A DNA stretch of 63,854 nucleotides, the filler included, from Dugesia japonica (taxonomy: Eukaryota): NCBI GenBank assembly GCA_001938525.1. It is 6 parts of 6 records of this genome, joined end to end, with 100 filler letters (N's around TTAATTAATTAA, not from the genome) between each part and the next. Parts side by side here need not be neighbours in the genome. Positions count along the whole stretch, not along the records: positions 1 to 11,400 come from MQRL01589082.1; 5 more parts are not named here. One strand, given 5' to 3'. Made by a program: the position numbers and the translations under genes. Positions within the stretch are counted from its first letter, which is position 1, and each line of letters opens with the position of its first letter. Below are positions 2,891 to 63,276 of this stretch, piece by piece. The notes under the pieces are model-generated. The model did no database searches and was not told the origin of the DNA. It worked only from the letters and a program-made list of their open reading frames with translations.

Positions 2891-4846
2891 NNNNNNNNNN
2901 NNNNNNNNNNNNNNNNNNNNNNNNNNNNNNNNNNNNNNNNNNNNNNNNNNNNNNNNNNNNNNNNNNNNNNNNNNNNNNNNNNNNNNNNNNNNNNNNNNNN
3001 NNNNNNNNNNNNNNNNNNNNNNNNNNNNNNNNNNNNNNNNNNNNNNNNNNNNNNNNNNNNNNNNNNNNNNNNNNNNNNNNNNNNNNNNNNNNNNNNNNNN
3101 NNNNNNNNNNNNNNNNNNNNNNNNNNNNNNNNNNNNNNNNNNNNNNNNNNNNNNNNNNNNNNNNNNNNNNNNNNNNNNNNNNNNNNNNNNNNNNNNNNNN
3201 NNNNNNNNNNNNNNNNNNNNNNNNNNNNNNNNNNNNNNNNNNNNNNNNNNNNNNNNNNNNNNNNNNNNNNNNNNNNNNNNNNNNNNNNNNNNNNNNNNNN
3301 NNNNNNNNNNNNNNNNNNNNNNNNNNNNNNNNNNNNNNNNNNNNNNNNNNNNNNNNNNNNNNNNNNNNNNNNNNNNNNNNNNNNNNNNNNNNNNNNNNNN
3401 NNNNNNNNNNNNNNNNNNNNNNNNNNNNNNNNNNNNNNNNNNNNNNNNNNNNNNNNNNNNNNNNNNNNNNNNNNNNNNNNNNNNNNNNNNNNNNNNNNNN
3501 NNNNNNNNNNNNNNNNNNNNNNNNNNNNNNNNNNNNNNNNNNNNNNNNNNNNNNNNNNNNNNNNNNNNNNNNNNNNNNNNNNNNNNNNNNNNNNNNNNNN
3601 NNNNCTGGCCAATGCTGATCAAATCGGGTTGCATCCAGAAAGCTATTTAAACCCCCTGAAAACTTAGCAAAAATTATCATTTTCTAACACAAAAAACTCT
3701 ATTAATTCAGTGTAAATCGTGAACTTTGAGTATAATTAATGAAATTTGTGGAATCATCAACAAGAAATTCGACACCTCCAGTGGTTTAATTATTATAAAA
3801 TTAACAAATGAAATTATTGAGAATTTAAGAAAAGAAAATCAGTAGATACCAAAAATCCGGAGAAAACATTTCTAAATCAAACTTCGTGACTTTATTACTC
3901 CCGTTGCAGCAAAGAGAAATTTAACAATAAGTAAGCATGAGTTCATCAATTTTGTTATTTTGTTGTTTAGTGAATGTGGAAAATTACTTGCGGTTATTTA
4001 TCCAATAAAGTTTAATAATCATCTTTTTTTTTAACTTCTATGATATCTAAAATTTCATAAATTTTNTGAATAATAACCATTCAATTGGCATTCACTAGGT
4101 GTTGTGAAATGAAATCTAATGACTGAAATTTGCCGCATAGTTGTCCCGTAATTTTATTATAAGTACATGATAAATTTCCTGAAAAAAAATCTGATCATCG
4201 GATATCAGTCAATGGAAAGTTACAATATGATTCGATATCACTACAGTTACGGCGCTCAATATTAGTACATGCAACCACGTAAATACAGATTCATGGCGGT
4301 TATATCTGGCACATTCCCACGTCGAATATGGAAAATACACCTACTGAATATAACATTTATTGCAATTATTTCCGTGATATATATTTTCTACCATATCCAC
4401 TTTAAGCATCTGTTATAACCAAAGTCAGCTGTTTTTCTTTTCTTGTCTTAAGGCATGCAAACACCATTATTGACACAGACACGCTTAATTTGAATGCCAC
4501 CGTAATTATTAACGATATAGCTCCCATCAGTAGGACAGTAGTATATTTCAGTATAAGTAACAATGAAATATCTGGGCAATATGTGTAACATGANNNNNNN
4601 NNNNNNTCGGTTTGATCACTTACCAGATTCAGGGTTCATACTCTATAAGTTTTAATGACGTCGTTGTTTGGATTGCACTTATGAGTAATATCGTTAAAAT
4701 CACCATGGCTAACATTACTATTGTGTTATAATTGCATACAATTTCATGACTAATATCATCAGTGTTCATTACTGTTGATTTAAATATCACATTATATTTA
4801 TATTAATTAATAAATATTGATTATTGTTAATGATATAACTTTATCA

Positions 4847-5161: not shown

Positions 5162-5200
5162 GAGTTCCTTTTTTAAGTATATAAATTATTAATTTAACCA

Positions 5201-5383
5201 ATGTCTGGTGAATTAAGGAAGTCACTGAAGGTGAGATTGAAGCAACGTGAGGCCTCTCGATTAAGGCAGCTATTGGTCCATCTTCTTACCCGAGGTAAGG
5301 TAGAACACCCCGACGAAACCGATTTAGCTTGTTTCGTCGAAATGTTCCCACTACTACTTCAGGTGGATCTTGACGAAGCGTGA
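5201..5383 (+). CDS. Cassette ORF M1, 60-aa unknown protein
   Basis: Intact ORF with a homolog at 31133-31315 sharing HLLTxGxxEHPDETDLxCFVEMFP; most third codon positions differ between copies. AATAAA downstream at ~5426. Confidence 0.75.
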   Translation: MSGELRKSLKVRLKQREASRLRQLLVHLLTRGKVEHPDETDLACFVEMFPLLLQVDLDEA

Positions 5384-5574
5384 CAACCCTCCTGTGAAAT
5401 ATAATAACTGTCATGCTTTGATTTAAATAAAGTCGAATAAATAGTTTAATCATCACTCTGAATTTATTTTATCGTAATTAGTTTATTCTTTTGTTATTTT
5501 ATTATAAATTATTTTCATCATAATTCAGTAAATTTAAATATTGATCATAACTGTTGAAAAATAATTACAGTAGG

Positions 5575-5985
5575 ATGGAGTACAAATGGTAGGTACTATT
5601 GGACAGGCGCACAAGACGTACGGTGTTTAAGAAATACACCAACCCCTATGACCGTAATGCGGGCATCCTGACTGACTATTCGAATCTGTCTAGTGAAGAT
5701 GCGGATAATGAGAGAGAATGAGCTGCTACTGAGTGCCAAGCTTTTTATCAATGTAGCGGCCCCGATCCCACCCGAGAGATGCTTCACTGTGTCACCATCA
5801 TAGATCCAGTAACTAACCAGATTACTAGTACGTGGCGGGACGGTCCTGCGTTGGTGCCCGTGTGGGTCGTCCACCTACCACGGACTATTAGATTCTCCGC
5901 AGATATAGGAAACACCTTTTGGAACCTAAGGAATATCGCTAGCGGAGGTGAATCGGAAAATAACGCGCCAAAAAATGAAGCGTAA
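5575..5985 (+). pseudogene. Cassette ORF M2, unknown protein with two in-frame stops
   Basis: MEYKW*VLLDRRT...NPYDRNAGILTDYSNL aligns with MESIWERTVDR...NPYNQDAGILVDR*NL from 31433. Confidence 0.6.
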
Positions 5986-6202
5986 AGTCAATGAATGATT
6001 TTTTCATTTTTACTACTTGTTGGTTGTTGTAAAAAAATAAAAATTGTGTTAAGAAATTTTATCTTCCCTTTCTTTTAACTGAGAAGGTCCACTTAATTGA
6101 TTCCGTAATTCTGTTAGTTGATCTTTTTATATTAATTGTTTCAAATTAGTCGAAGTTTCGCTTGTTAATTAACCACAAATTTCTACAATGTATATTTTGC
6201 AG

Positions 6203-6561
6203 TGCATTCCTCACTGAACAGAACCACGGCTCCGATCAAAAAGATGAGGGATGCCAGCGAGGACCAGGAAATGACNTGGGACCTCTATCGCCTCACGAAG
6301 CGTCGCTGGGAGGCAAAGGTGGCNACCTCAAATAGTAAAGTACTTCGGTATAAGAAAAAATGCATCGCCTTTAAAAAGGAAGCCAAAGCCTCACACACTC
6401 GAGAACGAGTGTGAAAGGGGCAATTTGAGTTCTTCGCAGAAATTATCCGGTCCCACCATGACCGAGAGAATAGACTGGTCAGCGACATATTGCATCTCAA
6501 GGAGAAAATGCCTCTCAAACCCTTGATGATAGATAAAAGCACCCAAACTCCACAACCGTAG
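6203..6561 (+). pseudogene. Cassette ORF M3, coiled-coil-like protein ending in DKSTQT (one TGA at a Trp position)
   Basis: Homologous over its full length to 31965-32323 (HSSLNR...EMTWDLYRL...RYKKKC...PLMIDKxTQT). Begins at acceptor ttttgcag|TG. Confidence 0.75.
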
Positions 6562-6724
6562 ATACCCGGTATTATATGACTATGAAAATAAACATTTCTT
6601 TATGTTATTGTGACTTTGTTTTCATTAGTCTATTCCTTTTAAGTTAAAATAAAATTGTTGTCATCAAATATTAGGACTAATATAGTTCATTGATGTTTTA
6701 TCTTTAATATTTTACTCGTTTCAG

Positions 6725-7086
6725 TGCCATGTATCCAGTTGCCCCGTAGTCTAAAACGATGCCACCGACTCATCCAGAAACTGCTACTCGAGAGACACTT
6801 TAAACGCTAATCTGAGCGTGCTTTGCTCTATCATTTAACGCAACGAAATAGACTGATAAAGCGGTTGGACGTGATTGTAAAGAAACAAAAGGACTTAGCT
6901 GAACACACAAAACAGCTCCTACAGCACAAGGTCGAATTTTTGAAGCGTTACATTGCCGACCTGTCACGCCAACTGGGCAATGCTGCATATCTCAACTGGG
7001 ACGATAATGGCGACTCAGTGTTGTTCGACTTTATACCAGAAGAGCTGACCCAGTGGTTAGACCTGGGTGCTCTCGATGATTTGTGA
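6725..7086 (+). pseudogene. Cassette ORF M4, basic region + leucine-rich coiled coil + acidic/aromatic tail (one stop)
   Basis: Three homologous copies (here, 10986-11368 -, 32444-32839 +) share KQxDLA...K(V/I)(E/D)F...I(A/S)DLSxQ(L/I)GN and QWLDx. Begins at tttcag|TG. Confidence 0.75.
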
Positions 7087-7142
7087 ATTATAAAATAATA
7101 TACAGTATTGATAGTAGTTCTTGTTCATTTTATTATTTTTTT

Positions 7143-7329
7143 CGTGAAAGTAAGGAACCCGAATTAAAGGTGTACAAGTGAGCACCTCCCGTAAAGGGTG
7201 AGGGTCAACCACTCTGCGCTGAATATCTAACCTAGGGGCGTTAGATTAAATTCTTGAGAGAGTACCCCTGAGAACCGTTTTTATCCGGCCAGCATCGTTT
7301 TCACCATGAACTCAGGTGGGACACCAACA
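7143..7329 (+). ncRNA. Putative structured RNA, copy A (unrecognised family)
   Basis: One of four homologous copies. Stems GGTGTA/TGCGCT, TCTAAC/GTTAGA and CCTGAG/CTCAGG covary with the other copies. Invariant TAAATTCTTGA. Confidence 0.6.
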
Positions 7330-7681: not shown

Positions 7682-7969
7682 ATATTGCTAAAGGTTCCAA
7701 AAGAATCGACAAGGAAATTGTTACAGTTATTTTCAACATTTGTCATAGATGATTTGCTAGATATTATTGTAAATATTATTCGTGGTAATTTAATTATCAG
7801 TAAAAAGAAATAAACTAGAACTAAGCGTCATAAAAGGTCACTGCTTTCAATTGTANATACAAAGAATAAGAAATTGATGAGAAAAATAATATATAAACAA
7901 AAGGGAGGATTCCTTTCTGTTCTATTGCCAATCGCATTAACAGCTTTAGGACTAATAAATTTCACATAA
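7682..7969 (+). pseudogene. Polinton/adintovirus small basic protein with adenovirus pX-like C-terminus
   Basis: ...NIIRGNLIISKKK*...KRHKRSL...YKQKGGFLSVLLPIALTALG resembles the QxGG|FLxxLL protein found upstream of Polinton integrases (xGG|x protease-site-like). Confidence 0.65.
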
Positions 7970-8079
7970 ACAATGGGTAACTTACAATCATTATCAACAA
8001 TTTATTTCAAATTTATATCAAATTGTTGTAATGGACAAAATCAAACCAATATGAACAGACTCAAAAAATCCAGTAGGGT

Positions 8080-9066
8080 TCAACGGAGTGGAAAAACTAT
8101 CGAAAGCAAAAGACAATTTAAAGCGAGACAAGAAAGCGGTTATCAAACCAGTTAGCGTACAGTCTGAACAAGCCATTGTTTAAAAGATTCCCAACAAGAC
8201 CGTATAAAACCTTTGGTATTGATGATTTATGGCAAATGGATTTGATGGAAATGATANCTTATTCGAGAATTAATAAAGGATACAAGTATATTTTGTCATG
8301 CGTTGATGTATTTAGTAGATTTGCAAGAGTTGTACTAATAAAATCAAATTCTGCTAATGATATGGAAGCTGCAATGAAATCAATTTTCAAAGACAGGCAT
8401 CCTGATAATTTGCAAACGGATTTGGAAAAAGAATTTTATAATTAAAAAGTCAAAAATATTATTAATCATCTGAAGATTAATCATTTTTCTGTATTTCTAC
8501 AATAGAAAGCAGCATATGTTGAAAGATTTAATCGAACATTGAGAGATGCATTGAAAATGTATTTTGCATGCACTGGTAATAAAACTTGGATACACGTTTT
8601 ATTGAAAGTAATCGATATTTATAATCATTCAAGTCACAGAGAATAAAATGGAGCAAGACCTGTTGATGTATCATCCTATAATTCAATGAAATTATGGCTT
8701 TTGAGACAACAACCAAAAGCAATCAAGAAACCAAAATATAAAATTGGTGATCATGTTAGAATCTCAAAGATATCAGCTTCACCATTCATCAAGAATTTCG
8801 ATAGCAATTGAAATGATGAAGTATTTTATAAATCAAATATCAATACCAAACAGAATCCATTTATGTATGTGATTAAAGATCATTAAGAAAATATCATTGT
8901 TGGAAAATTCTATGAACAAGAATTACAAGTTATTCCACAACCAACAGTATTTAAAGTAGAAAATATTATCAGATCAAGGGGAATGGGAAAGTATAAACAA
9001 TTATATTTAAAGTAGCATGGATATGAAAAACCAAGTTGGATATCAGCATCTCAAGTAGTAATTTAA
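8080..9066 (+). pseudogene. Polinton/Maverick retroviral-type (rve) integrase with C-terminal chromodomain, degraded
   Basis: IDDLWQMDLMEM, GYKYILSCVDVFSRFA, LQTDLEKEFYN, KAAYVERFNRTL, KYKIGDHVRISK, GKFYEQELQ, LK*HGYEKPSWI; several stops and frameshifts. Confidence 0.9.
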
Positions 9067-9085
9067 ACTAAGAAGAAAAATAAAA

Positions 9086-10097
9086 ATGAGCAAAACGAAT
9101 AATTTCTATCCACCATTACCGAGTAATAGTTTTCCACGTATTCATCCTGATAATAACGCAAGTAGATTCTGTGTTGCACTTGAAAATCCCATTTACTTGA
9201 ATGAACAATGGGAAGTAGCCTTGATGGACTTTACCTTTATATATTCTGCCTTTCAATTATATAACAAACGATACATCCAATATGTAACAGGTAATATCAT
9301 GAGAGTAATGTAGAAATAATAATCAATAACAAAGAAAAATCATTGATGGTTCATGATGTTGGTTTTGTGGTGATTGATGAAAGATCATTGTCAATCNNNN
9401 NNNNNNNNNNNNNNNATGTTGTAATATTTGACAATTAAAAAGATGCTAAATAATTTAGATTTAATACTTTAATGAATAATATAGAATCGGATACTACCAT
9501 ACAATATCGAAACTTTAAAAACGATGATTCAATTGATATTGTGAAAATGAAATAAGTATTTTCAATAGAAACTAATAAATTCATATCTTTAAAAAATGAA
9601 TATTACATATTNNNNNNNNNNNNNNNNNNNNNNNNNNNNNNNNNNNNNNNNNNNNNNNNNNNNNNNNNNNNNNNNNNNNNNNNNNNNNNNNNNNNNNNNN
9701 NNNNNNNNNNNNNNNNNNNNNNNNNNNNNNNNNNNNNNNNNNNNNNNNNNNNNNNNNNNNNNNNNNNNNNNNNNNNNNNNNNNNNNNTTAATTCATTGGT
9801 TTTAAAAATCCAAAATTAATCACTAATCCACATAAAATGTTCATCTATAGTAAAATTGTTGAACCTATAGTTGTTGGTGGTGTTAATGTTCCTTTGTTGA
9901 AATCTGTATGGTTAGAGAATTGTGAAGATGATCAAGTAGCTCAGATTATAATCAAGAATCCAATGTATTTACCAGTTGCCACTTCATGTATAAACAATAT
10001 AAAAATAAATATTCAAGGAGATAGTGGAGAATTAATAAACTTTGCTAAAGACTCAAAAACTCATTTAACTCTACATTTTCGAAAAGTAAATGTCTAA
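9086..10097 (+). pseudogene. Polinton minor capsid (penton-like) protein, degraded and gapped
   Basis: N-terminal FYPPLPSNS...NNASRF...IYLNEQWEVAL and C-terminal FIYSKIVEPIVVGGVNVPLLK...NPMYLPV...GELINF...LTLHFR are the conserved ends of the Polinton minor capsid protein. Confidence 0.75.
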
Positions 10098-10386
10098 TCC
10101 CAATATTATTAAACTTTATAGTATCAGCCAAGCTGGTGGAGAATTGCCGTACTTTGTAGGAAAACAGTTTGTATATAGATGNTTGAAAANAACTGGTGGA
10201 TTTGCTTTGCCTATTCTTAGACGTGTTGTAGCTATTGGTATGAAAACAGCACATGATGTTACAAAAAATAAAACAAATATTTTACAGTCACTCAAAACAA
10301 ATGCTATGACTGAATTCAAAGAATTTATGGCTTCTCCAAAAGTAACGAAAATAATGCCAAAGGACAACACCACAAAAGAATGTTGA
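10090..10386 (+). CDS. Polinton small core-like protein (QxGGxLPxFxG family), probably degraded
   Basis: SQAGGELPYFVGKQF...FALPILRRV directly after the minor capsid gene, the usual position in Polintons. Confidence 0.6.
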   Translation: MSNPNIIKLYSISQAGGELPYFVGKQFVYRXLKXTGGFALPILRRVVAIGMKTAHDVTKNKTNILQSLKTNAMTEFKEFMASPKVTKIMPKDNTTKEC

Positions 10387-10741: not shown

Positions 10742-10926
10742 TGTTGTGGTTCTACCTGAGTTAGATGGTGAGAAACACGGCTGAGGGAAAACAGCCCTCA
10801 GGGAAACTTTTTCAAGAATTTAACCCACCGTCCCTAAGGTAGGTTTTCAGTTCATGGTGGTTGACCTCTCTCTTAATGGGAGGTTCACACTCATAAACCT
10901 TTGTACTCGGGTTCATTATTTCCCCT
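10742..10926 (-). ncRNA. Putative structured RNA, copy B
   Basis: Reverse complement reads GGGGAAATAATGAACCCGAGTACAAAGGTTTATG...CCTACC/GGTGGG...TAAATTCTTGA...CCTGAG GGCTG/CAGCC CTCAGG...CAACA. Lies downstream of the minus-strand M4. Confidence 0.6.
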
Positions 10927-10985
10927 TATATTAGTAGCAAAAAAATACGATATTAATTATATACATTTTATTTCATAAAAATTAT

Positions 10986-11368
10986 TTATATCAAATCCAG
11001 CGCTCCTGGATCTAACCACTGGGTTGGATCGGTCAACTAAAAATTGAAGGCGGNAATGCCGTCATTGTCGTCCCATTGAGTCCAGGTTGTGTTGCCTATT
11101 TGGCGGGAGAGATCGGCGATGTATTGTTTAAGAAATTCTATCTTTCGCTGTAAAAGTTATTTCGTCTTTGCTTCTAAAGTGTTGGTTTGAGTCGCCAAGT
11201 CGCTCTGCTTCTTTACGATTAGATCTAATTGTTTTATTAACTTATCTCTCTAGGCCACTTGTTTGAGGATGACTCGGCCCGCCTTCCTTTTAAGATGTCT
11301 CTTTATCAAGAGTCGTTTCATAATCCGATGACACCATCGTAGGCTATTAGGGAAGGTTATACGTGGCA
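10986..11368 (-). pseudogene. Cassette ORF M4, second copy (three in-frame stops)
   Basis: tctttag|TG PRITFPNSLRWCHRIMKRLLIKRHLKRK...KIEFLKQYIADLSRQIGN...QWLDPGALDLI*. Confidence 0.75.
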
Positions 11369-22837: not shown

Positions 22838-29391
<6,554 letters not shown>

Positions 29392-31132: not shown

Positions 31133-31315
31133 ATGCCATCGGAATTATATTGTATTCTACGTTGGGTAAAAGAGCAACGCCCAGCTAGTCGATCCAAACA
31201 ATTAATAGCGCACCTACTGACCAAGGGGGAAATTGAGCATCCAGACGAAACGGATCTGAGATGCTTTGTAGAAATGTTTCCCTTTATGGCAGAAATCGAA
31301 CTAAACGCAGAATAA
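31133..31315 (+). CDS. Cassette ORF M1, second copy (60 aa)
   Basis: Same length as, and homologous to, 5201-5383; preceded by tttttag|ctcATG. Confidence 0.75.
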   Translation: MPSELYCILRWVKEQRPASRSKQLIAHLLTKGEIEHPDETDLRCFVEMFPFMAEIELNAE

Positions 31316-31432
31316 GTCATGCTGTTTGTAGCATTGTCATGAAAGTAAATTACATGCGCCATCTCGTTGACGTTTTTATTGTTTATGGAAAATTTGGTTT
31401 TATTCTAATCATTCTCATACTTTAATTAGGAA

Positions 31433-31780
31433 ATGGAATCTATTTGGGAACGCACGGTGGATCGACTTTCCGGCGGCACCACAATCCCTACAATCAAGAT
31501 GCCGGGATCCTGGTAGATAGATAAAATCTACCCCCCTCGAAGCAACTGTTGCTCGTATTCAGAGCTTTGGAGAGCAACTAAACTATCGCCAGGGGAATGG
31601 TCCTGAGCGTAACCACGCCACTCCATTCCGGTACCAACCTCCAGCTCCACCACCAGTATTTTAGGCCTTTATAGCTAAAATGCTCTGGGGTGTTAGGGAA
31701 CCCTCCGGCCTGGCGGATTAGNAAAATACAGTTCCCCCTGATACTAAAAATNCCGACTCTTGATGTTATCATAATCGTAA
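31433..31780 (+). pseudogene. Cassette ORF M2, second copy (frameshifted)
   Basis: NPYNQDAGILVDR*NL motif; occupies the same position between M1 and M3. Confidence 0.55.
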
Positions 31781-31964
31781 AATGTGTGTTTCTTTGAATA
31801 AATAAGTGTCTTAAGTAGTGTTAAAATACTCTCTAGCACTTTGGGAGGATTCCCTTTAATACTGTTATTCAGTGTTTTTATGCTTTAAATAAAGTTGAAC
31901 AGATATTAGTAAATTAGTCAGCAAGTCGATGAAGAGAAATGATTCTTATGATGTTTTCTTTTAG

Positions 31965-32323
31965 TGCATTCATCGTTAAATCGTCCCCCAGCTCCAACCA
32001 AGAAAATTCGAGACACGAGCGAGGACCGCGAAATGACGTGGGACCTCTACCGACTCGCCAAACGATGTCTGGAGGCGGACGTGGCCACTGCGAATAGTAA
32101 AGCGCTCCGTTATAAGAAAAAATGTGTTCTTTTCAAAAAGGAAGCGGAGGCCTCCCATTTACAGGAGCGCACTTGGAAAAAACAAGTGGAATCTTTTTCA
32201 GAGATTATNNNNNNNNNNNNNNNNNNNNNNNNNNNNNNNNNNNNNNNNATTTTGATTCTCCGGGAGAAAATCCCCCTCGAGCCGCTAATGATCGACAAAG
32301 GTACTCAGACGAGCCGCTCCTAG
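31965..32323 (+). CDS. Cassette ORF M3, second copy, ending in DKGTQTSRS
   Basis: Open apart from an N gap; begins at ttcttttag|TG; homologous to 6203-6561. Confidence 0.75.
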
Positions 32324-32443
32324 CTTGATATTGCATTATTGTTTGAATTAATAAATTATTTAATTGTATGAAATTCCTCTGTTACTTGTTTTTCCCGAGT
32401 CATCGACTAAGTATTCATTAATTTGATTGTATTTTTTCTTTAG

Positions 32444-32839
32444 TGNNNNNNNNNNNNNNNNNNNNNNNNNNNNNNNNNNNNNNNNNNNNNNNNNNNNNNN
32501 NNNNNNNNNNNNNNNNNNNNNNNNNNNNNNNNNNNNNNNNNNNNNNNNNNNNNNNNNNNNNNNNNNNNNNNNNNNNNNNNNNNNNNNGTAAGCAAAACGA
32601 CTTGGCAACCCAAACCAAAGCCCTAGAGGCAGAGAACAGGAAATTACTGTTACGAAAAATAGATTTTTTTATTTTTTTTTAATTTTATTTTTTTTAGATT
32701 TTTTCATATCTGACCTCTCCACACAGATTGGGAATCCGCCTGGATTCATTGGAACGATGACGACGATGTCGCCGCCTTCAATTTCACAATAGACGACCCA
32801 GATCAATGGCTAGACCCTAGCATATTAAATGATCTATAA
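32444..32839 (+). pseudogene. Cassette ORF M4, third copy (gapped, T-rich insertion)
   Basis: KQNDLATQTKALEAENRKLLLRKIDF...ISDLSTQIGN...QWLDPSILNDL*; begins at ttctttag|TG. Confidence 0.7.
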
Positions 32840-32896
32840 ATGTTATATTAATAAATGTTCCAAGAAGTATTTGGTATAAAATTTTGTGTAAGTTGA

Positions 32897-33085
32897 GGGA
32901 AAACTATCGAATCCGAATACAAAGGTTTATGGGTGTGCACCTCCCATTAGGAGAGAGGTCAACCGCCATAAACTGAATACCTACCCTAAGGGCGGTAGAT
33001 TAAATTCTTGAACGGGTTCCCCTGAGGGCTGCTTTTTTCCCCAGCCACATTTTTATTACCATCCGACTCAGGTGGAACCCCAACA
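32897..33085 (+). ncRNA. Putative structured RNA, copy C
   Basis: Stems GTTTATG/CATAAAC, ACCTC/GAGGT, CTACC/GGTAG, GGGTTCC-CCTGAG/CTCAGG-GGAACCC, GGCTG/CAGCC. Confidence 0.65.
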
Positions 33086-33099
33086 AATGTAAATTAAGC

Positions 33100-33290
33100 C
33101 AAAATCTGAAAAAAGGCAACAACTTTTGAGTGGTATGTCCAAAATCGTTGGGACAAGAAAAACGGTGAAAGACGAGGATACCTTCAGGAGAGTCAGAAAA
33201 AAGGTTGGAAGATCAAGCCAATAACGTAACAGGAAAACAAATTAAAACCAGAAACAAGAAATCACAAGACATCTAATTTTAGACGNCAAT
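33100..33290 (+). pseudogene. Family M5 remnant between RNA copies C and D
   Basis: WKIKPIT*QENKLK matches WEIGPITTQEIKIK of the ORF at 2624. Confidence 0.45.
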
Positions 33291-33418
33291 AAAACACAAA
33301 GGAAGTTTTGAAAAATTTAGAAATCGAACTATGAATAGGTCACATTTTAGCACCGGATCGAATTATTCCCACTCGACCCGGACATTAATTCATAATTACT
33401 GTTTATTTGGTTAATAAT

Positions 33419-33605
33419 GGGAAAAGTAATGAACCCGAAATAAAGGTATACGAGTGAGCACTTCAAGTATACGTTGGAAGTCAACAGCTTTGTACCGATA
33501 GCCTAATCAGAGACATTAGGTAAATTCTTGAATGGGTCCCCTGAGGGCTGTCTTTTCCCCAGCCACGTTTTTTCTTCTTCTACAAACTCAGTTAGGACCC
33601 CAACA
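33419..33605 (+). ncRNA. Putative structured RNA, copy D (most divergent)
   Basis: Stems GGTATA/TGTACC, ACTTC/GAAGT, CCTAAT/ATTAGG, GGGTCC/GGACCC, GGCTG/CAGCC; 5' GGGAAAAG complementary to loop CTTTTCCC. Confidence 0.65.
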
Positions 33606-33855
33606 ATAATATTTATTTTTATTATTTACCAATTAATTCATTTAATGGTTATTTTTATTCGGTTCCGATTTTTATATCCTTTCTCATACATTTCTGATCT
33701 CTAATTCTTTTCTCGGTTTTACTTATTTCGTTAACTAGCCTGTTTCAGCCCAACATATCGTTGTTAGAAAAATTTGGCTTGAATGACCCATACAGAGGTA
33801 TGGTAAAGAGGTATCATAAATGCTTGTGGGTTTTAAGTATGCCCCTAGACAGAAA

Positions 33856-39571: not shown

Positions 39572-42500
39572 AGTCAATAAATTATCATATTATGTAGTGG
39601 CATCAGCTAATTACCGCTTGATATCGAAAAGGATGGATACATAAAGAATTAACCGTCAGAACATTCGACTTCCAGATAGGCCAGTGGCATCAGGGCCAGC
39701 TCCTGTTGTTAATGATTCAGAAAGAAATTCTCAAATTCAATATCAAAAGCAAATCCAGAGAGACTGACCGACAACATCCATGAAGTTCATTACCAGAAAG
39801 TTATGTAATGAATAAAAAGATTTTCCACCTCCAAAAGAATAAATTTTGAGGTCAGGTATGTGTTTTTGTTGTGGTTCAAATGGACATTTCCGCAATAATT
39901 GTCCTCAAAGAGATTGTTTAATTTGTTTAAAATCGGAACATAATTTTAGAAGTCATGGACGGCTTTGGAAATATCACTACGGAAACGATGTTAGATGTAT
40001 TGCGAATGAAACTAATAAAAAAGTTGCAATAGATGTAATTTGCGATGAATAGGATGAAGTAGAGCATGATGTGAACTATTTAAACGATAAGGACTTCACT
40101 GTTCCAATTTCATCTGTGGAATCAAGACAAGTAAGAACAAATCAAAATCAAAATTTAAACGTAGATGACGAGATGTATGTGAAGAGCGATGTAAGAATTT
40201 CAAGGGTGGTTAAAGTGAATAGTAAAGGTGTGGAGATGTTATGTGGCACAGGAACATCGATTTCAGTAAGGAATATGAATGCTTGTTTCCATTGTAAAAT
40301 TAAGAAATAAAATTGAGTGGAGCATTTTCGAGAGAAGCAGTTAAATGCTTAGGCATCTGAAAAGTGAAAATTGAGTATCATAATATGACTGAAACTGTCA
40401 ATTTGGTGTTAGTACAGAGTATAAGCCCAGAGTTCATTGGATAAATAAACATGCTTAAAGTTTTTAATATCCAATTAAAGATGATTGGATTAATCGAGTC
40501 AGATAATGTAATGAATGATATTTCTGATGATGATCATTTAAAGATCACTATGGACGTTTCCAAACCAAGAGTTGACACCTTGAAAATATTGTTAACGCGT
40601 TTCAATTCGATATTCATGGCACATACGCTTGATATGGGTAAAACATACCTAGTTAAACCTCCTATTCATGCAACGGGAAATCTTGTCTTACAACAGCTAA
40701 GACGACAACCGGTGCATCTAGAAGTCAAGATTATTGAAATGATTCAAACATTTGTCAAAAGCGGTATTATAAAAGAATGCAGTAGCCCACGGAACTAACC
40801 TATGGTGATTATTAACAAAAATAATGGAGCTATTCGTATGTGTCAGGATTTCAGATTATTGAAGGAACTAACTGATAAATTTTCTTTTCTTATGTTATTC
40901 GATCATCTTAGTCAGTGTACCATATTCTCAACACTAAATATAAGTCAAGCGTATTTTCAAGTCGGACTAGAAGAGGAGGATAAAATTGAATCCGCGTTTT
41001 TTACAAAGAAATGTCAGTACTTTTATGATCGCATGCCATTCAGCCTATCAACCGCTCCAGCTACATTTCAAAATTTAATGCATATAATTTTGTTGGATAT
41101 TCTATTTAAAGTCATTGTACTTTATATCAATGATATTCTAATCTTTGCGAAAAATCGGAAGGAACATGATCGTATTCTATCAAAAGTATTTCACAGAATT
41201 TAAGCATCTGATCTTAAAGTAAATACAGCCAAATGTAAACTGTATCAGGAAGAGCTCGTGTTTCTGGGTCATACAATAAANNNNNNNNNNNNNNNNNNNN
41301 NNNNNNNNNNNNNNNNNNNNNNNNTTAATGCTGGAATTCCGAAATGTACTAAATAGTTGCGATCTTTTCTTGGAATGGCAAACTATTACAGTAAATTTAT
41401 AAAAAAGTTTTCGCAACTTGATACACCTTTTTATGCTGCTACCGAAGGTCCAAAGCACGAAATAATGTGGACAAAGGAATCCGAGACGAGTTTCGAGTAA
41501 ATCAAGGAAGCTCTTTGTAACTCTCTAATATATGGGTATCCTAATTCAGAAGGTCAATTCATTCTGGATACTGATGCCAGTTTTTCGGGAATTGGTGTGG
41601 TACTGAACCAATCACAAAACGTTATGGAAGTCGAAATAGTAAATGGATCAAGGTTATAAAAAAAGAATATTCCGTGACAAAGAAGGAGTTATTGGCTCTT
41701 TATAAATTTATTCAATATTTTTGGCATTATCTTTATGGGAAAATTTTTATCGCGAGAACCGATGACAAAGCTTTAGACTTTAAAGAATTCGAGATAAGCA
41801 ATTACACCGCAGTTGCAGACTTGTATAAACAAGTTATCAGAATATGATTTCGTATTGAAGTATAAGAAAAATTACCATCATTACAATGCTGATAGTAAGT
41901 CAAGACTGACGTCCAATTATTTTTCACAATGCCAGACCGAACATGAAAATGCGAAGTGTAAATCGTCTAAGGTAAAATATTTAAATGTTATGAACGTTTT
42001 CAGAAGTGATTCACATAATTACATAAAAGAAAGTTAAAAAGATGAATTATTTAAGGAAAGCAAAATTCATTTGATGGACAAAACTGTTAAGTTATCAGAA
42101 ACGGTAAAAGCCTCCGAGTATTTTAAATATTTGCTGTTAATTTGCTTAACTAATTTTGAGAACGAAATTCATAAAGATTTATGCCATGTTCAAATAACAA
42201 AATCAACAAAATATGTATCTGATTAATTTTTCTGGCAGAATATGATTACATATATTCAGAATGCTAACAGAGAACGTCATTTTTGTATGCACAGGGCGGT
42301 TAGTAGTGATAAAGTTAAGGAAAAGTATATACCAAGATACGTAGTTAACCCGATGGAAGAAATTGTGATAGATGCTACATATATCGATCACAGGAAATCC
42401 TATAAAAAATACATGATTGTNATAATTGATCAATTCAGCAAGTTAGTCAGCCTTTATGTAGATAAAAATTAAAACAGAAACACAATGCAAATTGCGTTGT

Positions 42501-43330
42501 TAAATAACTGGAATTACAAATATGGAAAACTTAAACGCATTGTTTCTGATAGACGAAGAATGTTTGAAGGAAATGTTTTACAAGAGTTTGCTTCAAGATT
42601 ACATATTTCATGGATATTTACATCTCCCCATGAGCATAAATCAAATGATTGAGCAAAACGCGCAATTAAAATTGTCAGAGATATGATAGTAACTTACTTG
42701 AAATCTGGAGGAGAGGAGAAGTGTTGAAATGAAATCCTTCCAAAAGTGGAGTTTTCATTCAATAGCACGATATCAAAGGCGAAAGGATTCTCTTCGATAG
42801 AAGCAATCTATGAAAGGAAAATTAATATTCATTCAACGAAAGAATTCAAGAGTAACCGTAAAGAAGTTCTGGAAAAGACCGTGAATCTTGAGAGGAGGGA
42901 GAAACAAATGAGCAACCTGTTCTGTTTGTTGCTTTCAATCAAGCAATGAGGAATCCATGACCCTTCTTTATTCACTTTGCCTAATTGATGAAAATGAATC
43001 GCAATGTTGATTTTAGAGATCCGTAAGCGATCTTCAAATTCCCGTGTTTTAAGCTTTGGGTCTTCATTGATCAATTCACTTTATTATACACTTTGCCTAT
43101 TTGATGCAAATTAATCGTAACCTAAACGAAGCTTCAAAAAAAATGATGAAGTCAAGAAGTTGAAAGGGAATTTAAAGTAAGGGATAAAGTTCTGATGGGC
43201 CTTTCGAAATTATGGAATTCATATCACCGCATCAAGCAAGATTGCAGAATTCAGAAGGTTAGAAATACAGACGTATGGAGTGGCTGAAAAGATGTTAAAA
43301 ATCTGAAAGAGACGGAGAACTTGGAAATTG
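39572..43330 (+). mobile_element. Ty3/gypsy LTR retrotransposon, degraded (gag zinc knuckles, PR, RT, RNase H, IN)
   Basis: CFCCGSNGHFRNNC; RMCQDFRLL; RMPFSLSTAPATFQ; LYINDILIF; FILDTDASFSGIGVVL; IIDQFSK; GPFEI. Confidence 0.92.
42877..43075 (-). mobile_element. TIR-less mariner transposase fragment inserted in the gypsy integrase
   Basis: Inverted high-identity copy of ~43703-43896 (INEDPKLKT...SWIPHCL). Confidence 0.85.
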
Positions 43331-43512
43331 TTGTAACCTTGATGTTTTGTTTATATATTAAAGTGTAAATAATAAATATATTTTTGAATTTCAAGATATC
43401 AATTATAANNNNNNNNNNNNNNNNNNNNNNNNNNNNNNNNNNNNNNNNNNNNNNNNNNNNNNNNNNNNNNNNNNNNNNNNNNNNNNNNNNNNNNNNNNNN
43501 NNNNNNNNNNNN

Positions 43513-44253
43513 ATTGTTTGTTACACGAGTTAAGAAAATGATCAACTACCTTTAAAAACAATTCATCGGTTTATTCAGATTCTGGATTGTCACTGAATAA
43601 ATGTTAAAAATGGTTCCGAAACGTCAAGAGAAGAAATTTTAATCTATCTGAAAGTAGAAGAGAAAGTACTTCAAATTTGAATTACAAAACCTTTTTGACT
43701 CTTATTAACGAAGACCCAAAGCTTAAAACACCGGAATTTGAAAATCGTTTACGGGTCTCTCACATCAACATTGCGATTCATTTTCATAAATTAGGCAAAG
43801 TGAAAAAAGAATGGTCATGGATTCCTCATTGCTTGATTGAAAGCAACTAACAGAACAGGTTGTTAATTTGTTCTTCCCTCCTCTCAAGATTCACGGAAGA
43901 ATTTTTTTTAAAAAGAATGATGAAGGAAATGAAATGTGGGTGTTTATGTTAACATTAAAATAAAAAAAGGACTAACACTTGGCTAGAAGCCAATATTTAC
44001 AGACAAATCAGGACTTTATCCTCGTCAGATAATTATGTCTCTTTGGTCTGATTATTGCGGTGTCATAAACTTATGCAAAACATATCTATCACAGGAAACA
44101 TCCACTAGGTCATTGAAAAGAATTTTCACAAAGGAGTATATCAAAACCGCCCTGGAAAATTTCTTTGTATCTAAGTCATCCACTTTTTATGAAGATTTGA
44201 TCATGAATTTAGCTTTAAGATGGCAAAAGGTCATATACAGCAGTGGAAAATAA
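43513..44253 (+). mobile_element. mariner transposase remnant
   Basis: KWFRN..., SWIPHCL, IMSLWSDYCGVI, LALRWQKVI; internal deletion. Confidence 0.85.
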
Positions 44254-51529: not shown

Positions 51530-54440
51530 GGGCATTGCGACTCCTATAACGCCGCTTCTTCGACCTGTATCGCTTGTGCATTTGAATTATTATTACTATG
51601 AAAGCGATGAGGAAGAGTAATGTAATCATTTCCAATATTAAAAAAGGTGATATAATATTTTTGCATCAAATGGTTTTTTTGTTGTTGTAATCCACATTTG
51701 TAAGATTCTATTTCAAAGGTGTTGATAATCTTCTTTTGGATTATCCCGAGCATTCTCTTTCAATCTTTTTTATTTTTTGTATATATTTATCTTTATTATT
51801 GTTTTCGTTATACTATAACTTGGTGATGTATTTACCTTTAACAAAGTTGTTGTTAATTTGCTTTGGAAATCCATTGCATATGTTTCCATTATTAGCTGAG
51901 TATTGGTATTGGTTGTAATGGAACTTTAGTTTTTTTCGTGTATTCCTTTTTGTAGCTCAAATGCTAAATCCTTGACACCATTTTTTCACATCATCTTTGA
52001 TATTATCCCAATAATACTTCTGCATTACTCTTGACGTAGTTTTTCAACTCAAAAGATGTCCTTCGAGTGCTCCAGCATGGTGTTGTAAAAGTAATAACTG
52101 CTTTAAAGAATCTGGCACGACAATTACATTTTTTTCTAGGTTATTGTATATGAGCACGTTCTTGTACACTTTTATTTGGTATTTTTCTCTAGAATCATCA
52201 TTTTATTAATTACCTGTATTTTTTTATCCTTATTTTGTTCTTCTTGAAACCTTTTGGGAAATGTTCCAGTAATTACAGTTGACATAATTTCTAATATATT
52301 TATTTCTGGAATTCTGGATAGTGCATCGGCATTTTTATTTGGTTTTCTTGGTTTTTATATAATACATATGCTCATATCTCGGATATTCATCGCCCATTTG
52401 AGTATTCTACTAGATGCTTCTTTATTTTTCCATAAACCTTCTAATGGTTTATGATCGGTTCGTATAATTATTTCAGTTCTATATTAGATTGGTCTAAATT
52501 GTTTTAATGCAAATATGATAGCTAAACATACCTTCTCGATTGTTGAGTATCTCGTTTCTATTCCTTTTAACATTCTACTGCATAATCAATGATATAGTNT
52601 TTATTTTTCTCATTTTCTTGTCCGAGTACTTCTCCCGTGGCTTATCCACTTGCATTTTTCATTACTATAAATTGTTTGGTGAAGTCTGTATATCTTAATA
52701 TTGGAGCTGTCAACAATCGTTGCTTTAGTGTATCAAAGGCTTCTTGTTGTTTTGGACTCCATTTCTTTTAAGGTTTTTTGATTTTTCATCTAATTGTTCT
52801 ACAATTATAACGTTTTTACTTCCATCTTTAGTTTTCAGTCTTTTCGTTAACTCTAACAATGGTGCTGCTATCTTTGCAAGGTTTTCTACGAATTTCCTGT
52901 GATACCCTACTGAGCCATTAAATTCTTTTAGTTGTTGTACGCATTTTGGTGCTGGAAAGTCTTGAACTACTTTTACTTTTTCTGGATTTGTTTCTTATCC
53001 TTTTTATGACACAATATGTCCTAGTAATAAAACACTGTGCCCATTTACACCTTATTGGTTTTAATTTGATATTTTCTTCTCTAATTATTGATAATACATT
53101 TTCTTTATTAATTAAATGCTGTTCAAATTATGTGAATGCTATCAATATGTCATCCATGTGTACCACCACATGTTTCTACAGCTTTATCAATCTTTGGAAA
53201 GTAGCTGGTGCATTGCATAATCCAAATAGTAGTCTAACAAATTTGTATAATCCATCAATCGTGCAAAATACTATCTTTTCTCAATCTTCCTCTTGTACTG
53301 AAATTACATTTTAGCCCTTGATTGCATCAAAAATTGCAAAATACCATACATTCATTAGTTTATTGAATTGTTCATGTATTTTGGGAAATAGATGTGTATC
53401 CATTTTTGTAACTTCGTTGAGCTTTCTATAATCTATACAAATTCGAATTTCTCCATCTTTCTTTTTACTGGTACTGTTGGTGATGGCAATTGAGAGAAAC
53501 TATTTGGTATAATTCCATTTTCTTTGAGTTCTTTTATTGGTTTTTTTATCTCTGATCCTAACGCATAAAGTGCCACATATGACCGTTGTTTTATTGGTCT
53601 AACATCCCTTTTATCAATCATATATTTTATGATATTTGTTCTTCCTAAATCAAATTCATGTTTGGCAAACGCATCTTCATTTTTATCCAGCAGTTTTTGT
53701 AATTGTTGCTTTTTATTCATCTTAAGATCTTTGTACGTTATTTTTCTCCCATAATATTTCGTTTGTTTAAGTTTAATTAGTTCTGTGTCAATTGTTTTTC
53801 TAATTTTGCTTTGTTGATCTAGTATAAATTTGAATAGATCATGACTAATTAATTGACTTGCTATTTGTTCTATTTTCCCCGATCTCATTATGTTATGATA
53901 TGGCGTGTCTGAATAATTAGGTGAGAACAGTTTATTAAACTTCTGCAAGTTTGTTTTCTTTGGCTGTTCCTCAATTACAATTTCACATATCTCGTATTCA
54001 CTACCATTTTCAAATAATTTACCTAATTTTGTCCCTTTCTAAAGTTCTACATCATAGTTTAATATAATTTTCTTTTCTCATTAGTATTGTACATTTCTTT
54101 GTTTCTACACATTCGAGCATCATTGATAGATTATGTTTTACTGCTAATTTGTCGTTTGTTAAAAAAATATATGAATTATTGTTTTGTAGTTCTGTATTTA
54201 TTGGTAATATACATTCACTACATTGCTCTATTTTTATTAACTTTATCGCACTTACTTCGTTATACTCTGTTTGTAATGTTANCGGCGTCGCCATTTTCAG
54301 TGTGCTAAATCAATAACATAATCCTTTATTCTTGCAAGACAATCCATGCCCAATATGCAATTCTGTGTTCCCTTTTTGATTGCTTTAAAATGGTGTGTAT
54401 TAATTTCTTGCCCAATTGTGAGTGTCAATTATTCTTTTTT
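51530..54440 (-). mobile_element. Ty3/gypsy LTR retrotransposon, degraded
   Basis: FGLCNAPATFQR, VHMDDILI, YSTIEKVCLAIIFALKQFR, RTDHKPL, NKNADALSRIP, HHAGALEGHL on the minus strand. Confidence 0.9.
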
Positions 54441-62051: not shown

Positions 62052-63276
62052 CTAGGTTGAGTCAAAAGTTCCCGGACACTTTTTATTTTGTCTATTTGAA
62101 TTTTAAAAAAATTGAATTATCTATTTTATTATAGTAAGTCAATTATTACAGATTTAATTTCAAAAAAATATTTATCATAGAAGCTCACAAAATGGCGGAC
62201 TTAAAAATCATAATTCGCGGTGTACTGCATCATTATTAGAAACAGGGTATACGCGTAAGAGCAATAGCCATAAAAATATGTGAAATTGAAGGTCCTAGGA
62301 TAGTCTTAAAAGCTACCGTAGGAGAATGGTTTCATAGATTTAATGAAAGCAATACCAGTCTGGAAGACAAATCACGTTCTGGAAGGCCATCGGACCTGAT
62401 AAATGAAGCTTTGTTGCAAGGTATTCAACAAATGCCAGACACCAGCACTCGCATTCTGGCTACTCAAATTGGGACGTCTCACTCAACCATGGTTTGGAAC
62501 CTTCTCGAACTTGGTTTTGCAAATATGAAACCCAAATCTGTTTGACATGAACTGACTGATCAATAAGCACGAAATTGTTGGATAATTCTAAAGATGACAG
62601 GTTCTGGAGACGAATCATAACTGTCGATGAAAAGTGGATATATTTCAGAAATCCTATTGTCATAAGGCAATAACTTCAGTCAGGTCAGAAGACATCATCC
62701 GTAGCTAAAAAGGGAAGGTTCAAACACATGGTGATGTTATCCATATGGGGGAAGTTTGAGTGTCCTGTATTATGGGGCTAATTTCAAAAGGCCAAGATTG
62801 TGGATAAAAACCTGTATGCTAAACAATTGGAACGATTTTATGATGTCTTAGTCACTCGTTATCCAGCTTTAATCAATAGAAAATAGGTGTTTCTGAAGCA
62901 TGATAATGCTCCAGTCTATAATTCTAAAGTGGTAAAGTCTAAATTAGAAGAGCTCGATGGAATCGAACTACTACCTCATCCAGTTTAAAGCTTAGACTTA
63001 GCTCCATCAGATTATCTTTAGTTCCAGTTAATGAGTCATTTTCTGATTGCCCAAAAATTTAATTCAGTAGCAGATGTCGAAAGTGGAGTCCATGAGTTTT
63101 TGCAGTCCAAGCCACCACTATGGTATCAGAAAGGAATCAAAAATTAAGCTGATAGACGGTTGTAAACCTTATCTAGCGAAGGACTTTATTTTGATAAGTA
63201 AAACTTTGATGTATTTATGACTTTTNTTCTATATATTTTTAGTTTAAAGTGTCCGGGAACTTTTAACTCAACCTAG
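62052..63276 (+). mobile_element. Full-length mariner (DD34D) transposon with inactivated transposase
   Basis: TIRs ctaggttgagtcaaaagttcccggacacttt / aaagtgtccgggaacttttaactcaacctag, TA TSD; ITVDEKW, HDNAP and LDLAPSDY motifs with stops. Confidence 0.95.

Follow-up and report, generated by a model that had tools for sequence, protein, structure and literature searches.

How does translation begin in a gene whose DNA carries no start codon? The question is raised by M3 and M4, two adjacent short genes in a 63,854-nt stretch of Dugesia japonica DNA (assembly GCA_001938525.1), which consists of six parts joined end to end with filler between them and is referred to below as the window. The initial annotation had proposed that both genes begin directly behind a splice acceptor and that an intron splits the initiator codon, A|TG. 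In the sequences compared here, the acceptor half of this proposed splice-built start holds, while the donor half is weaker.

A repeated four-gene cassette

Apart from transposon debris, the AT-rich animal DNA of the window contains one clear host gene. Comparison of the window with itself revealed four short genes (M1-M4) on one strand and, downstream of M4, a non-coding element (CE) some 185 nt long. Copy 1 of this unit lies at 5201-7329 on the plus strand and copy 2 at 31133-33085, with an extra CE at 33422-33606; copy 3, at 11368-10742 on the minus strand, holds only M4 and CE, which gives two near-full copies and one partial copy in the window. The genes are spaced 120-220 nt apart, in agreement with the flatworm definition of an operon; AATAAA is found within 60 nt past the stop at 6 of the 8 gene ends compared, and acceptor-like sites stand ahead of 7 of the 8 gene starts compared, the exception being M1 copy 1. 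M3 and M4 have about 120 codons each, no similarity between the two was detected, and every copy of either is damaged by stops, frameshifts or N gaps. A repeated, now decayed mobile cassette is the best explanation for M1-M4.

Searches of M1-M4 against Pfam and PHROGs gave nothing above cut-off, and phmmer, run with the M2-M4 stretch on 1.84 billion representatives, found a single match, to M2 only. Neither of the two M3 candidates from a word search was significant, and the Atlas search with M4 gave no usable match. M1 matched nothing in Pfam, PHROGs, the PDB or viral folds: its predicted model (pLDDT 61) found no viral fold at E <5, no PDB sequence came below E 0.3, and none of 162 pattern matches in prokaryotic genomes was confirmed. 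The four-gene cassette, with its structured RNA of no known family, is previously undescribed. Its first two genes have an ATG:

5201..5383, plus strand: M1 copy 1, a 60-codon ORF that is intact and starts with an ATG; identity to copy 2 is 56%
31133..31315, plus strand: M1 copy 2, with an acceptor-like TAG 3 nt ahead of the ATG
5528..5573, plus strand: putative 5' UTR intron before the M2 ATG in copy 1; A|GTAAAT, AG at 5570 or 5573, 43 or 46 nt
5575..5985, plus strand: M2 copy 1, with an ATG start and an ORF broken by in-frame stops
31433..31720 (3' end approximate), plus strand: M2 copy 2, frameshifted, with an acceptor-like TAG 3 nt ahead of the ATG

The only outside relative of the cassette that was found, P0003, is a 94-residue homolog of M2 and begins MExxW, as do both M2 copies, which supports the M2 ATG; among 3 candidate relatives of P0003 only P0003 itself was recovered, on a 512-nt contig. 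The candidate intron ahead of M2 copy 1 is of host length, and its donor reaches the 93rd percentile of random GTs. With a strong host-type intron candidate just 5' of this ATG, it looks as if the cassette habitually places introns close to gene starts.

Two further intron-like stretches were seen in these genes. At 5179-5218, a 40-nt host-type GTATAT...TAAG lies across the ATG of M1 copy 1, and its excision, with use of an upstream ATG, would keep the frame; because the M1 ATG is common to copy 2, this stretch is probably a product of chance. At 5828-5902, within M2 copy 1, a GC-rich, frame-preserving stretch of 75 nt reads A|GTACGT...CAG, and copy 2 and P0003 are without about 24 residues there; it is either an unusual intron or an insertion. 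A fusion of M2 to M3 was rejected: M2 copy 1 has phase-1 GTs, and by eye none stands at the aligned place in copy 2.

Splice-acceptor motifs at the starts of M3 and M4

The coding parts of M3 and M4 are as follows:

6203..6561, plus strand: coding exon of M3 copy 1; in-frame stop at 6412-6414, AATAAA 26 nt past the stop, 61% identity to copy 2
31965..32323, plus strand: coding exon of M3 copy 2; short N gap, AATAAA 27 nt past the stop
6725..7086, plus strand: coding exon of M4 copy 1; no Met in frame, reading frame interrupted by a stop at 6808-6810, long helix and acidic tail predicted
32444..32839, plus strand: coding exon of M4 copy 2; N gap from 32446, frameshifted
10984..11368, minus strand: coding exon of M4 copy 3; starts TAG|TG, N gap beyond 32 nt upstream

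The acceptors described initially were all recovered: YAG|TG stands at the start in 5 of 5 copies (6203, 31965, 6725, 11368 on the minus strand, and 32444), behind a pyrimidine-rich tract with 7, 9, 10, 10 and 10 pyrimidines, respectively, in the 12 nt ahead of YAG. As background, YAG precedes 138 of the 6744 TGs in the window (2.0%), and 34 of 6744 (0.5%) combine this with at least 8 pyrimidines in 12. The lack of an ATG start was likewise borne out, since none of the five copies has an in-frame ATG between the upstream stop and the TG. An in-frame Met is absent from the whole of M4 copy 1, the lone early Met of copy 3 is not shared, and the first Met common to the M3 copies is codon 24.

In codons 2-23 of M3, copies 1 and 2 show 6, 2 and 14 mismatches at codon positions 1, 2 and 3, and of these 22 codons 10 differ by synonymous changes only and 6 change the amino acid; the next 56 codons have 13, 8 and 34 mismatches at the same positions, and codons 2-16 of M4 have 6, 3 and 10. 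Ungapped identity rises at the acceptor from 6/15 to 11/15 in M3 and from 7/15 to 10/15 in M4. Homology directly after the TG had been claimed for all five copies and is seen in four, M4 copy 2 being unreadable because of its N gap from 32446. With a signature of coding selection from codon 2 and no ATG upstream, translation would have begun at or before the TG codon. We consider it very probable that translation of M3 and M4 requires a spliced-on 5' piece, a reading that is well supported because the acceptor motif occurs in two unrelated genes, constraint is present from codon 2, M4 offers no usable Met, and out-of-frame ATGs upstream would hinder initiation at GTG.

Two observations concern the proteins themselves. 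M3 ends in DK[SG]TQT in both copies (6535-6552 and 32296-32313), a terminus reminiscent of the motif through which several viral proteins bind dynein light chain LC8. In the predicted model of M4 (6725-7086), a basic helix and a helix of 60 residues precede an acidic-aromatic tail, an arrangement that may be akin to a bZIP-like activator.

Candidate sources of the initiator A

The host splice reference was a single gene, with introns inferred by script:

22862..29391, plus strand: complete host type IV collagen gene, outside the cassette; Pfam C4, 1765-codon ORF with no internal stop

The script model of this gene, whose closest named relative is a Heterobilharzia americana protein (61%; one of 2 matches among 54 candidates), has 28 GT-AG introns, all 28 of them 40-50 nt long. 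Donors are GTAA (15), GTAT (7), GTTT (3), GTGA (1), GTAG (1) and GTAC (1); AAG serves as acceptor in 6 of 28 and CAG in 1 of 28. The 40-50-nt window applied below was taken from this gene, not from the M3/M4 sites. Upstream of M3 and M4 the candidate sites are:

6143..6151, plus strand: AAATTAGTC motif, common to copy 2 (31911); contains an A|GT 54 nt from the acceptor
6155..6202, plus strand: candidate intron splitting the M3 start codon, copy 1; A|GTTTCG...CAG|TG, 48 nt, one out-of-frame ATG inside
31909..31964, plus strand: region upstream of M3 copy 2; A|GT at 31909 (56 nt), 31917 (48 nt) and 31925 (40 nt), A|GC at 31921 (44 nt); four ATGs, none in frame
6685..6724, plus strand: candidate intron splitting the M4 start codon, copy 1; A|GTTCAT...CAG|TG, 40 nt, one out-of-frame ATG inside
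32399..32443, plus strand: candidate intron of M4 copy 2; A|GT at 32399 (45 nt) or 32411 (33 nt)

All donors named in the initial annotation exist (6155, 48 nt; 31921, a GC donor, 44 nt; 31925, 40 nt; 6685, 40 nt; 32411, 33 nt), although that list had missed A|GT sites at 31917 (48 nt), 6149 (54 nt) and 31909 (56 nt). The M3 motif AAATTAGTC is indeed shared, at 6143 and 31911, and is either a donor or a promoter/initiator element. The agreement with host micro-intron size stands for the spacings of 48, 44, 40 and 40 nt, but the 33-nt candidate at 32411 is too short, since 28 of 28 host introns measure 40-50 nt; the alternative donor at 32399 gives 45 nt.

Position speaks for these sites. Each of the five GTs located 40-50 nt upstream of the four readable M3/M4 acceptors is preceded by A (5/5), whereas this holds for 8 of 28 GTs at 57-165 nt and for 24 of 71 in the spacers as a whole; in the other distance classes A precedes 1 of 3 GTs at 25-39 nt and 2 of 3 at 51-56 nt. 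An A|GT at 40-50 nt is present for 4 of 4 readable acceptors, for which shuffles give a probability of 0.17-0.24 per acceptor, that is 0.044 with the two genes taken as independent and 0.0014 with four. The donors themselves are poor. Scored against the 28 host donors, the five lie at the 22nd, 12th, 39th, 33rd and 4th percentile of 5405 random GTs; they are inside the host score range, with just 1-8 of the 28 host donors lower, and no better than a random GT. Three begin GTC and one GTTC, and GTC occurs in 0 of 28 host donors. The GC content of the candidate introns is 24-33%, compared with 7-24% in host introns, and donor positions show no clear alignment between copies. Stronger donor sites are found in M3 copy 2 only (A|GTAAAT, 56 nt; A|GCAAGT, 44 nt). 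TTAGTC lies ahead of M3 and its reverse complement, GACTAA, ahead of M4; this could be a promoter or initiator motif, in which case some A|GTC would be explained without splicing. The proposal of a start built by splicing is supported by the acceptor, the frame and the constraint from codon 2, and loses ground at the donors, which match host donors poorly.

The likelihoods that we attach to all models of the M3/M4 start are judgements, not computed values. The best model, to which we give roughly an even chance, is that a local micro-intron of host length splits the initiator codon A|TG in both genes; a local micro-intron appears to be the likeliest source of the A, and for the donor side the evidence is positional. 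Each cassette gene ends in a stop codon of its own, mostly with a poly(A) signal, and under this model would tend to carry an intron at its very start. In M2, and in M1 copy 2, the start intron would sit just ahead of the ATG; in M3 and M4, a phase-1 micro-intron of host length would lie inside the initiator codon, and the host spliceosome would join a short non-coding first exon ending in A to the TG. Unspliced M3/M4 RNA, having no in-frame AUG and often out-of-frame AUGs, would give no protein, and expression would hinge on splicing from a weak donor. We infer transcription, donor choice, splicing and any regulatory role of these start introns from DNA. A point against the local micro-intron is that a rare arrangement shared by two unrelated genes would be explained more simply by one shared leader.

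Introns that disrupt the start codon are described as relatively rare in eukaryotic genes (PMC1626468), and in Yarrowia the donor of 42 introns directly follows the first, second or third base (A, T or G) of the start codon (PMC13309789). As in those genes, the ATG of M3 and M4 would exist only after splicing; the difference is that here two adjacent unrelated genes of a mobile cassette are involved, with non-consensus donors and a predicted splice. Start-proximal introns are common in reduced genomes (PMC6679479, PMC3514955, PMC2784321). The ATG|GT introns of ribosomal-protein genes, microsporidia, nucleomorphs and diplomonads are short and stand at the gene start, as does the one before the M2 ATG, but they are mostly phase 0 and follow an intact ATG, whereas the M3/M4 candidates split it. 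A literature search on spliced Maverick genes gave nothing on point by title, and for a presumed gypsy env precedent no confirmation was found in the literature. The likely reading would mean that a rare intron class is used twice within one mobile cassette and that both proteins are strictly splicing-dependent; with no ATG in the DNA, M3 and M4 would be missed by ATG-based annotation.

A shared leader might instead come from the element CE, which is located after M4 in 3 of 3 copies, in tandem in one, about 55 nt past the M4 poly(A) signal. Of 15 matches to CE, only 4 are strong copies:

7147..7329, plus strand: CE1, conserved structured RNA, donor-like GT at 7178
32901..33085, plus strand: CE2a, donor-like GT at 32933 with ATGG just before
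33422..33606, plus strand: CE2b, tandem second copy, donor-like GT at 33454
10742..10921, minus strand: CE3, donor-like GT at 10890

The fold of CE is conserved, with 10 of 41 pairs changed on both sides, which 0 of 500 shuffles equalled, and with 93% pairing against 29-43% in slid controls, both controls being lenient because the structure was derived from the same four sequences. G-U substitutions speak for the sense strand, and when the 5' 120 nt are folded as single sequences the result is ordinary (z -0.1 to -1.5); Rfam returned no family and a tRNA search none. A hammerhead was rejected by eye, as invariant bases of the hammerhead core are absent. CE might serve as a leader RNA or, alternatively, as a 3' processing element with a pseudoknot.

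As a leader, CE would be a spliced-leader-like RNA made by the element itself and joined to |TG by trans-splicing, or by cis-splicing out of a circular or tandem form, which we regard as rather unlikely. Its exon would extend one base beyond the end of the flatworm AUG|GU leader and would place the AUG in a frame that the host leader cannot supply. Such a role is consistent with a conserved sense-strand structure after M4 in every copy, with the operon-like spacing of 120-220 nt and with the weakness of the local M3/M4 donors. One of four invariant GTs (GTG[AT]G, located in hairpin 1 at an internal loop) would supply AUG in the right frame in all 4 of 4 copies: the four bases before this GT are ACAA, ATGG, ATGA and ACGA, so that three copies end in A and the copy ending in G has ATG directly before it, in frame. 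CE recalls the cestode and trematode SL-RNAs (PMC12582326) in its layout, with two hairpins ahead of a U tract that is interrupted by C and one hairpin behind it; flatworm SL-RNAs likewise have the donor at an internal loop of the first hairpin and hairpins flanking a U tract.

Against this, flatworm SL-RNAs measure 78-103 nt (PMC12582326), whereas the conserved span of CE is about 185 nt; the flatworm leader ends AUG|GU, and CE has no AUG|GU. The invariant TAAATTCTTGA between the hairpins leaves the UVUUUGG Sm-like core unmatched, and the tract may be paired internally (of 8 additional pairs, 7 are intact in every copy and none covaries). The base before the GT covaries with its partner, and pairing alone may fix it. 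No common promoter was seen in the regions upstream of CE, four related copies are few, and the chance of a coincidence of frame is judged to be about 1 in 4; the local 5/5 A|GT would also be left unexplained. CE falls outside the flatworm SL-RNA family, and that it nevertheless acts like a member is improbable. The fuller claim, that a mobile, possibly virus-like element encodes its own SL-like RNA one base off the host AUG|GU and that the start codon of two genes comes only from this leader, is a long shot. If true, it would amount to a private, frame-locked trans-splicing switch and would bear on the origin and spread of spliced-leader RNAs; a search mostly outside subscription journals found no paper on an element- or virus-encoded spliced-leader RNA.

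One leader would also account for two genes together if the transcript, like that of the adenovirus major late unit, had a distant first exon ending in A that is cis-spliced to one acceptor or another, with poly(A) sites likewise alternative. The acceptor-like sites at 7/8 gene starts and AATAAA after 6/8 stops fit such an arrangement, which is nonetheless improbable: the regions upstream of M1 in the two copies have no conserved block in common (the best blastn match has E 0.053), and of seven phase-1 GTs none is common to the two M1 copies.

We give equally little credence to the acceptors joining a short coding exon that lies upstream and begins with an ATG, the junction codon then being internal. 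For M4, copy 1 has an ATG near 6583 and A|GTC at 6628 (97 nt), copy 2 an ATG near 32369 and A|GTC at 32399 (45 nt), and the two peptides have MK and LCY in common; moreover, a phase-1 A|GTAAAG at M3 codon 44 in both copies could fuse M3 to M4. Shuffles, however, produce an upstream exon by chance in 42-52% of cases for M4 and 72-78% for M3, the M4 exon overlaps the M3 poly(A) region, and 97 nt is twice the host intron length. In neither copy of M3 is an in-frame ATG found upstream of any donor within 90 nt.

Translation without splicing, from the GTG that overlaps the AG, would dispense with the weak candidate donors, and this GTG is in frame in 5 of 5 copies. It is doubtful all the same, as it leaves the conserved Y-A and pyrimidine tract of two unrelated genes unexplained. 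T stands at -3 in 4 of 5 copies, a poor initiation context, and in 3 of 4 readable copies the 48 nt upstream contain ATGs in other frames (1, 4, 1 and 0), which would hinder initiation at GTG.

The spliced leaders reported for parasitic flatworms and for Macrostomum end in ATG (PMC12582326, PMC8629364). Flatworm trans-splicing, in which a separate 5' piece likewise gives the start to close genes with acceptors at their starts, matches the operon-like spacing, and in copy 2 a host leader would fit the frame of M1 and M2; on M3 and M4 it is very improbable, since a leader ending in AUG is one base out of frame there and meets a stop after 4, 4, 9 and 3 codons (4 of 4 readable copies), and M4 copy 1 has no Met for reinitiation. 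The argument presumes a flatworm host, which the single Heterobilharzia match of the collagen gene makes probable.

The Maverick-like remnant and other features of the window

Directly after CE1 lies a run of decayed genes:

7772..10383, plus strand: decayed Maverick/Polinton-like genes (rve integrase, protein X-like and capsid-associated ORFs; labels beyond rve and Adeno_PX are tentative)

The match to rve, an integrase of retroviral type, is clear (E 9.8e-11, 42.3 bits, cut-off 32.6) and the Adeno_PX match is below cut-off (E 0.038). We take the run to be Maverick-like, of the adintovirus-like kind, whereas M1-M4 match no library. It adjoins CE1 and is flanked by inverted, diverged M4+CE units, CE1 and CE3 being inverted relative to each other and only 72% alike. 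In the 18 pieces scanned, no protein-primed PolB, major capsid, ATPase, protease or terminal inverted repeats were recognised, and the Atlas search with the penton-like ORF gave only glycosyltransferase leads below 0.9, which neither support nor exclude the penton label. The cassette is a candidate part of the Maverick remnant.

Other features were seen in the window. An ORF of no Pfam match at 2570-2890 has a decayed relative at 33113-33319, between CE2a and CE2b (tblastx E 2.7e-4), and is perhaps a fifth cassette gene. Identical 31-mers at 2860-2890 and 3605-3635 flank a long N gap, which suggests a scaffolding overlap. Decayed LTR-retrotransposon pol pieces and mariner-like transposase fragments were recognised by eye in translations at 40445-42469 (plus strand), 52728-54038 (minus strand), 42832-43896 and 62240-62545.
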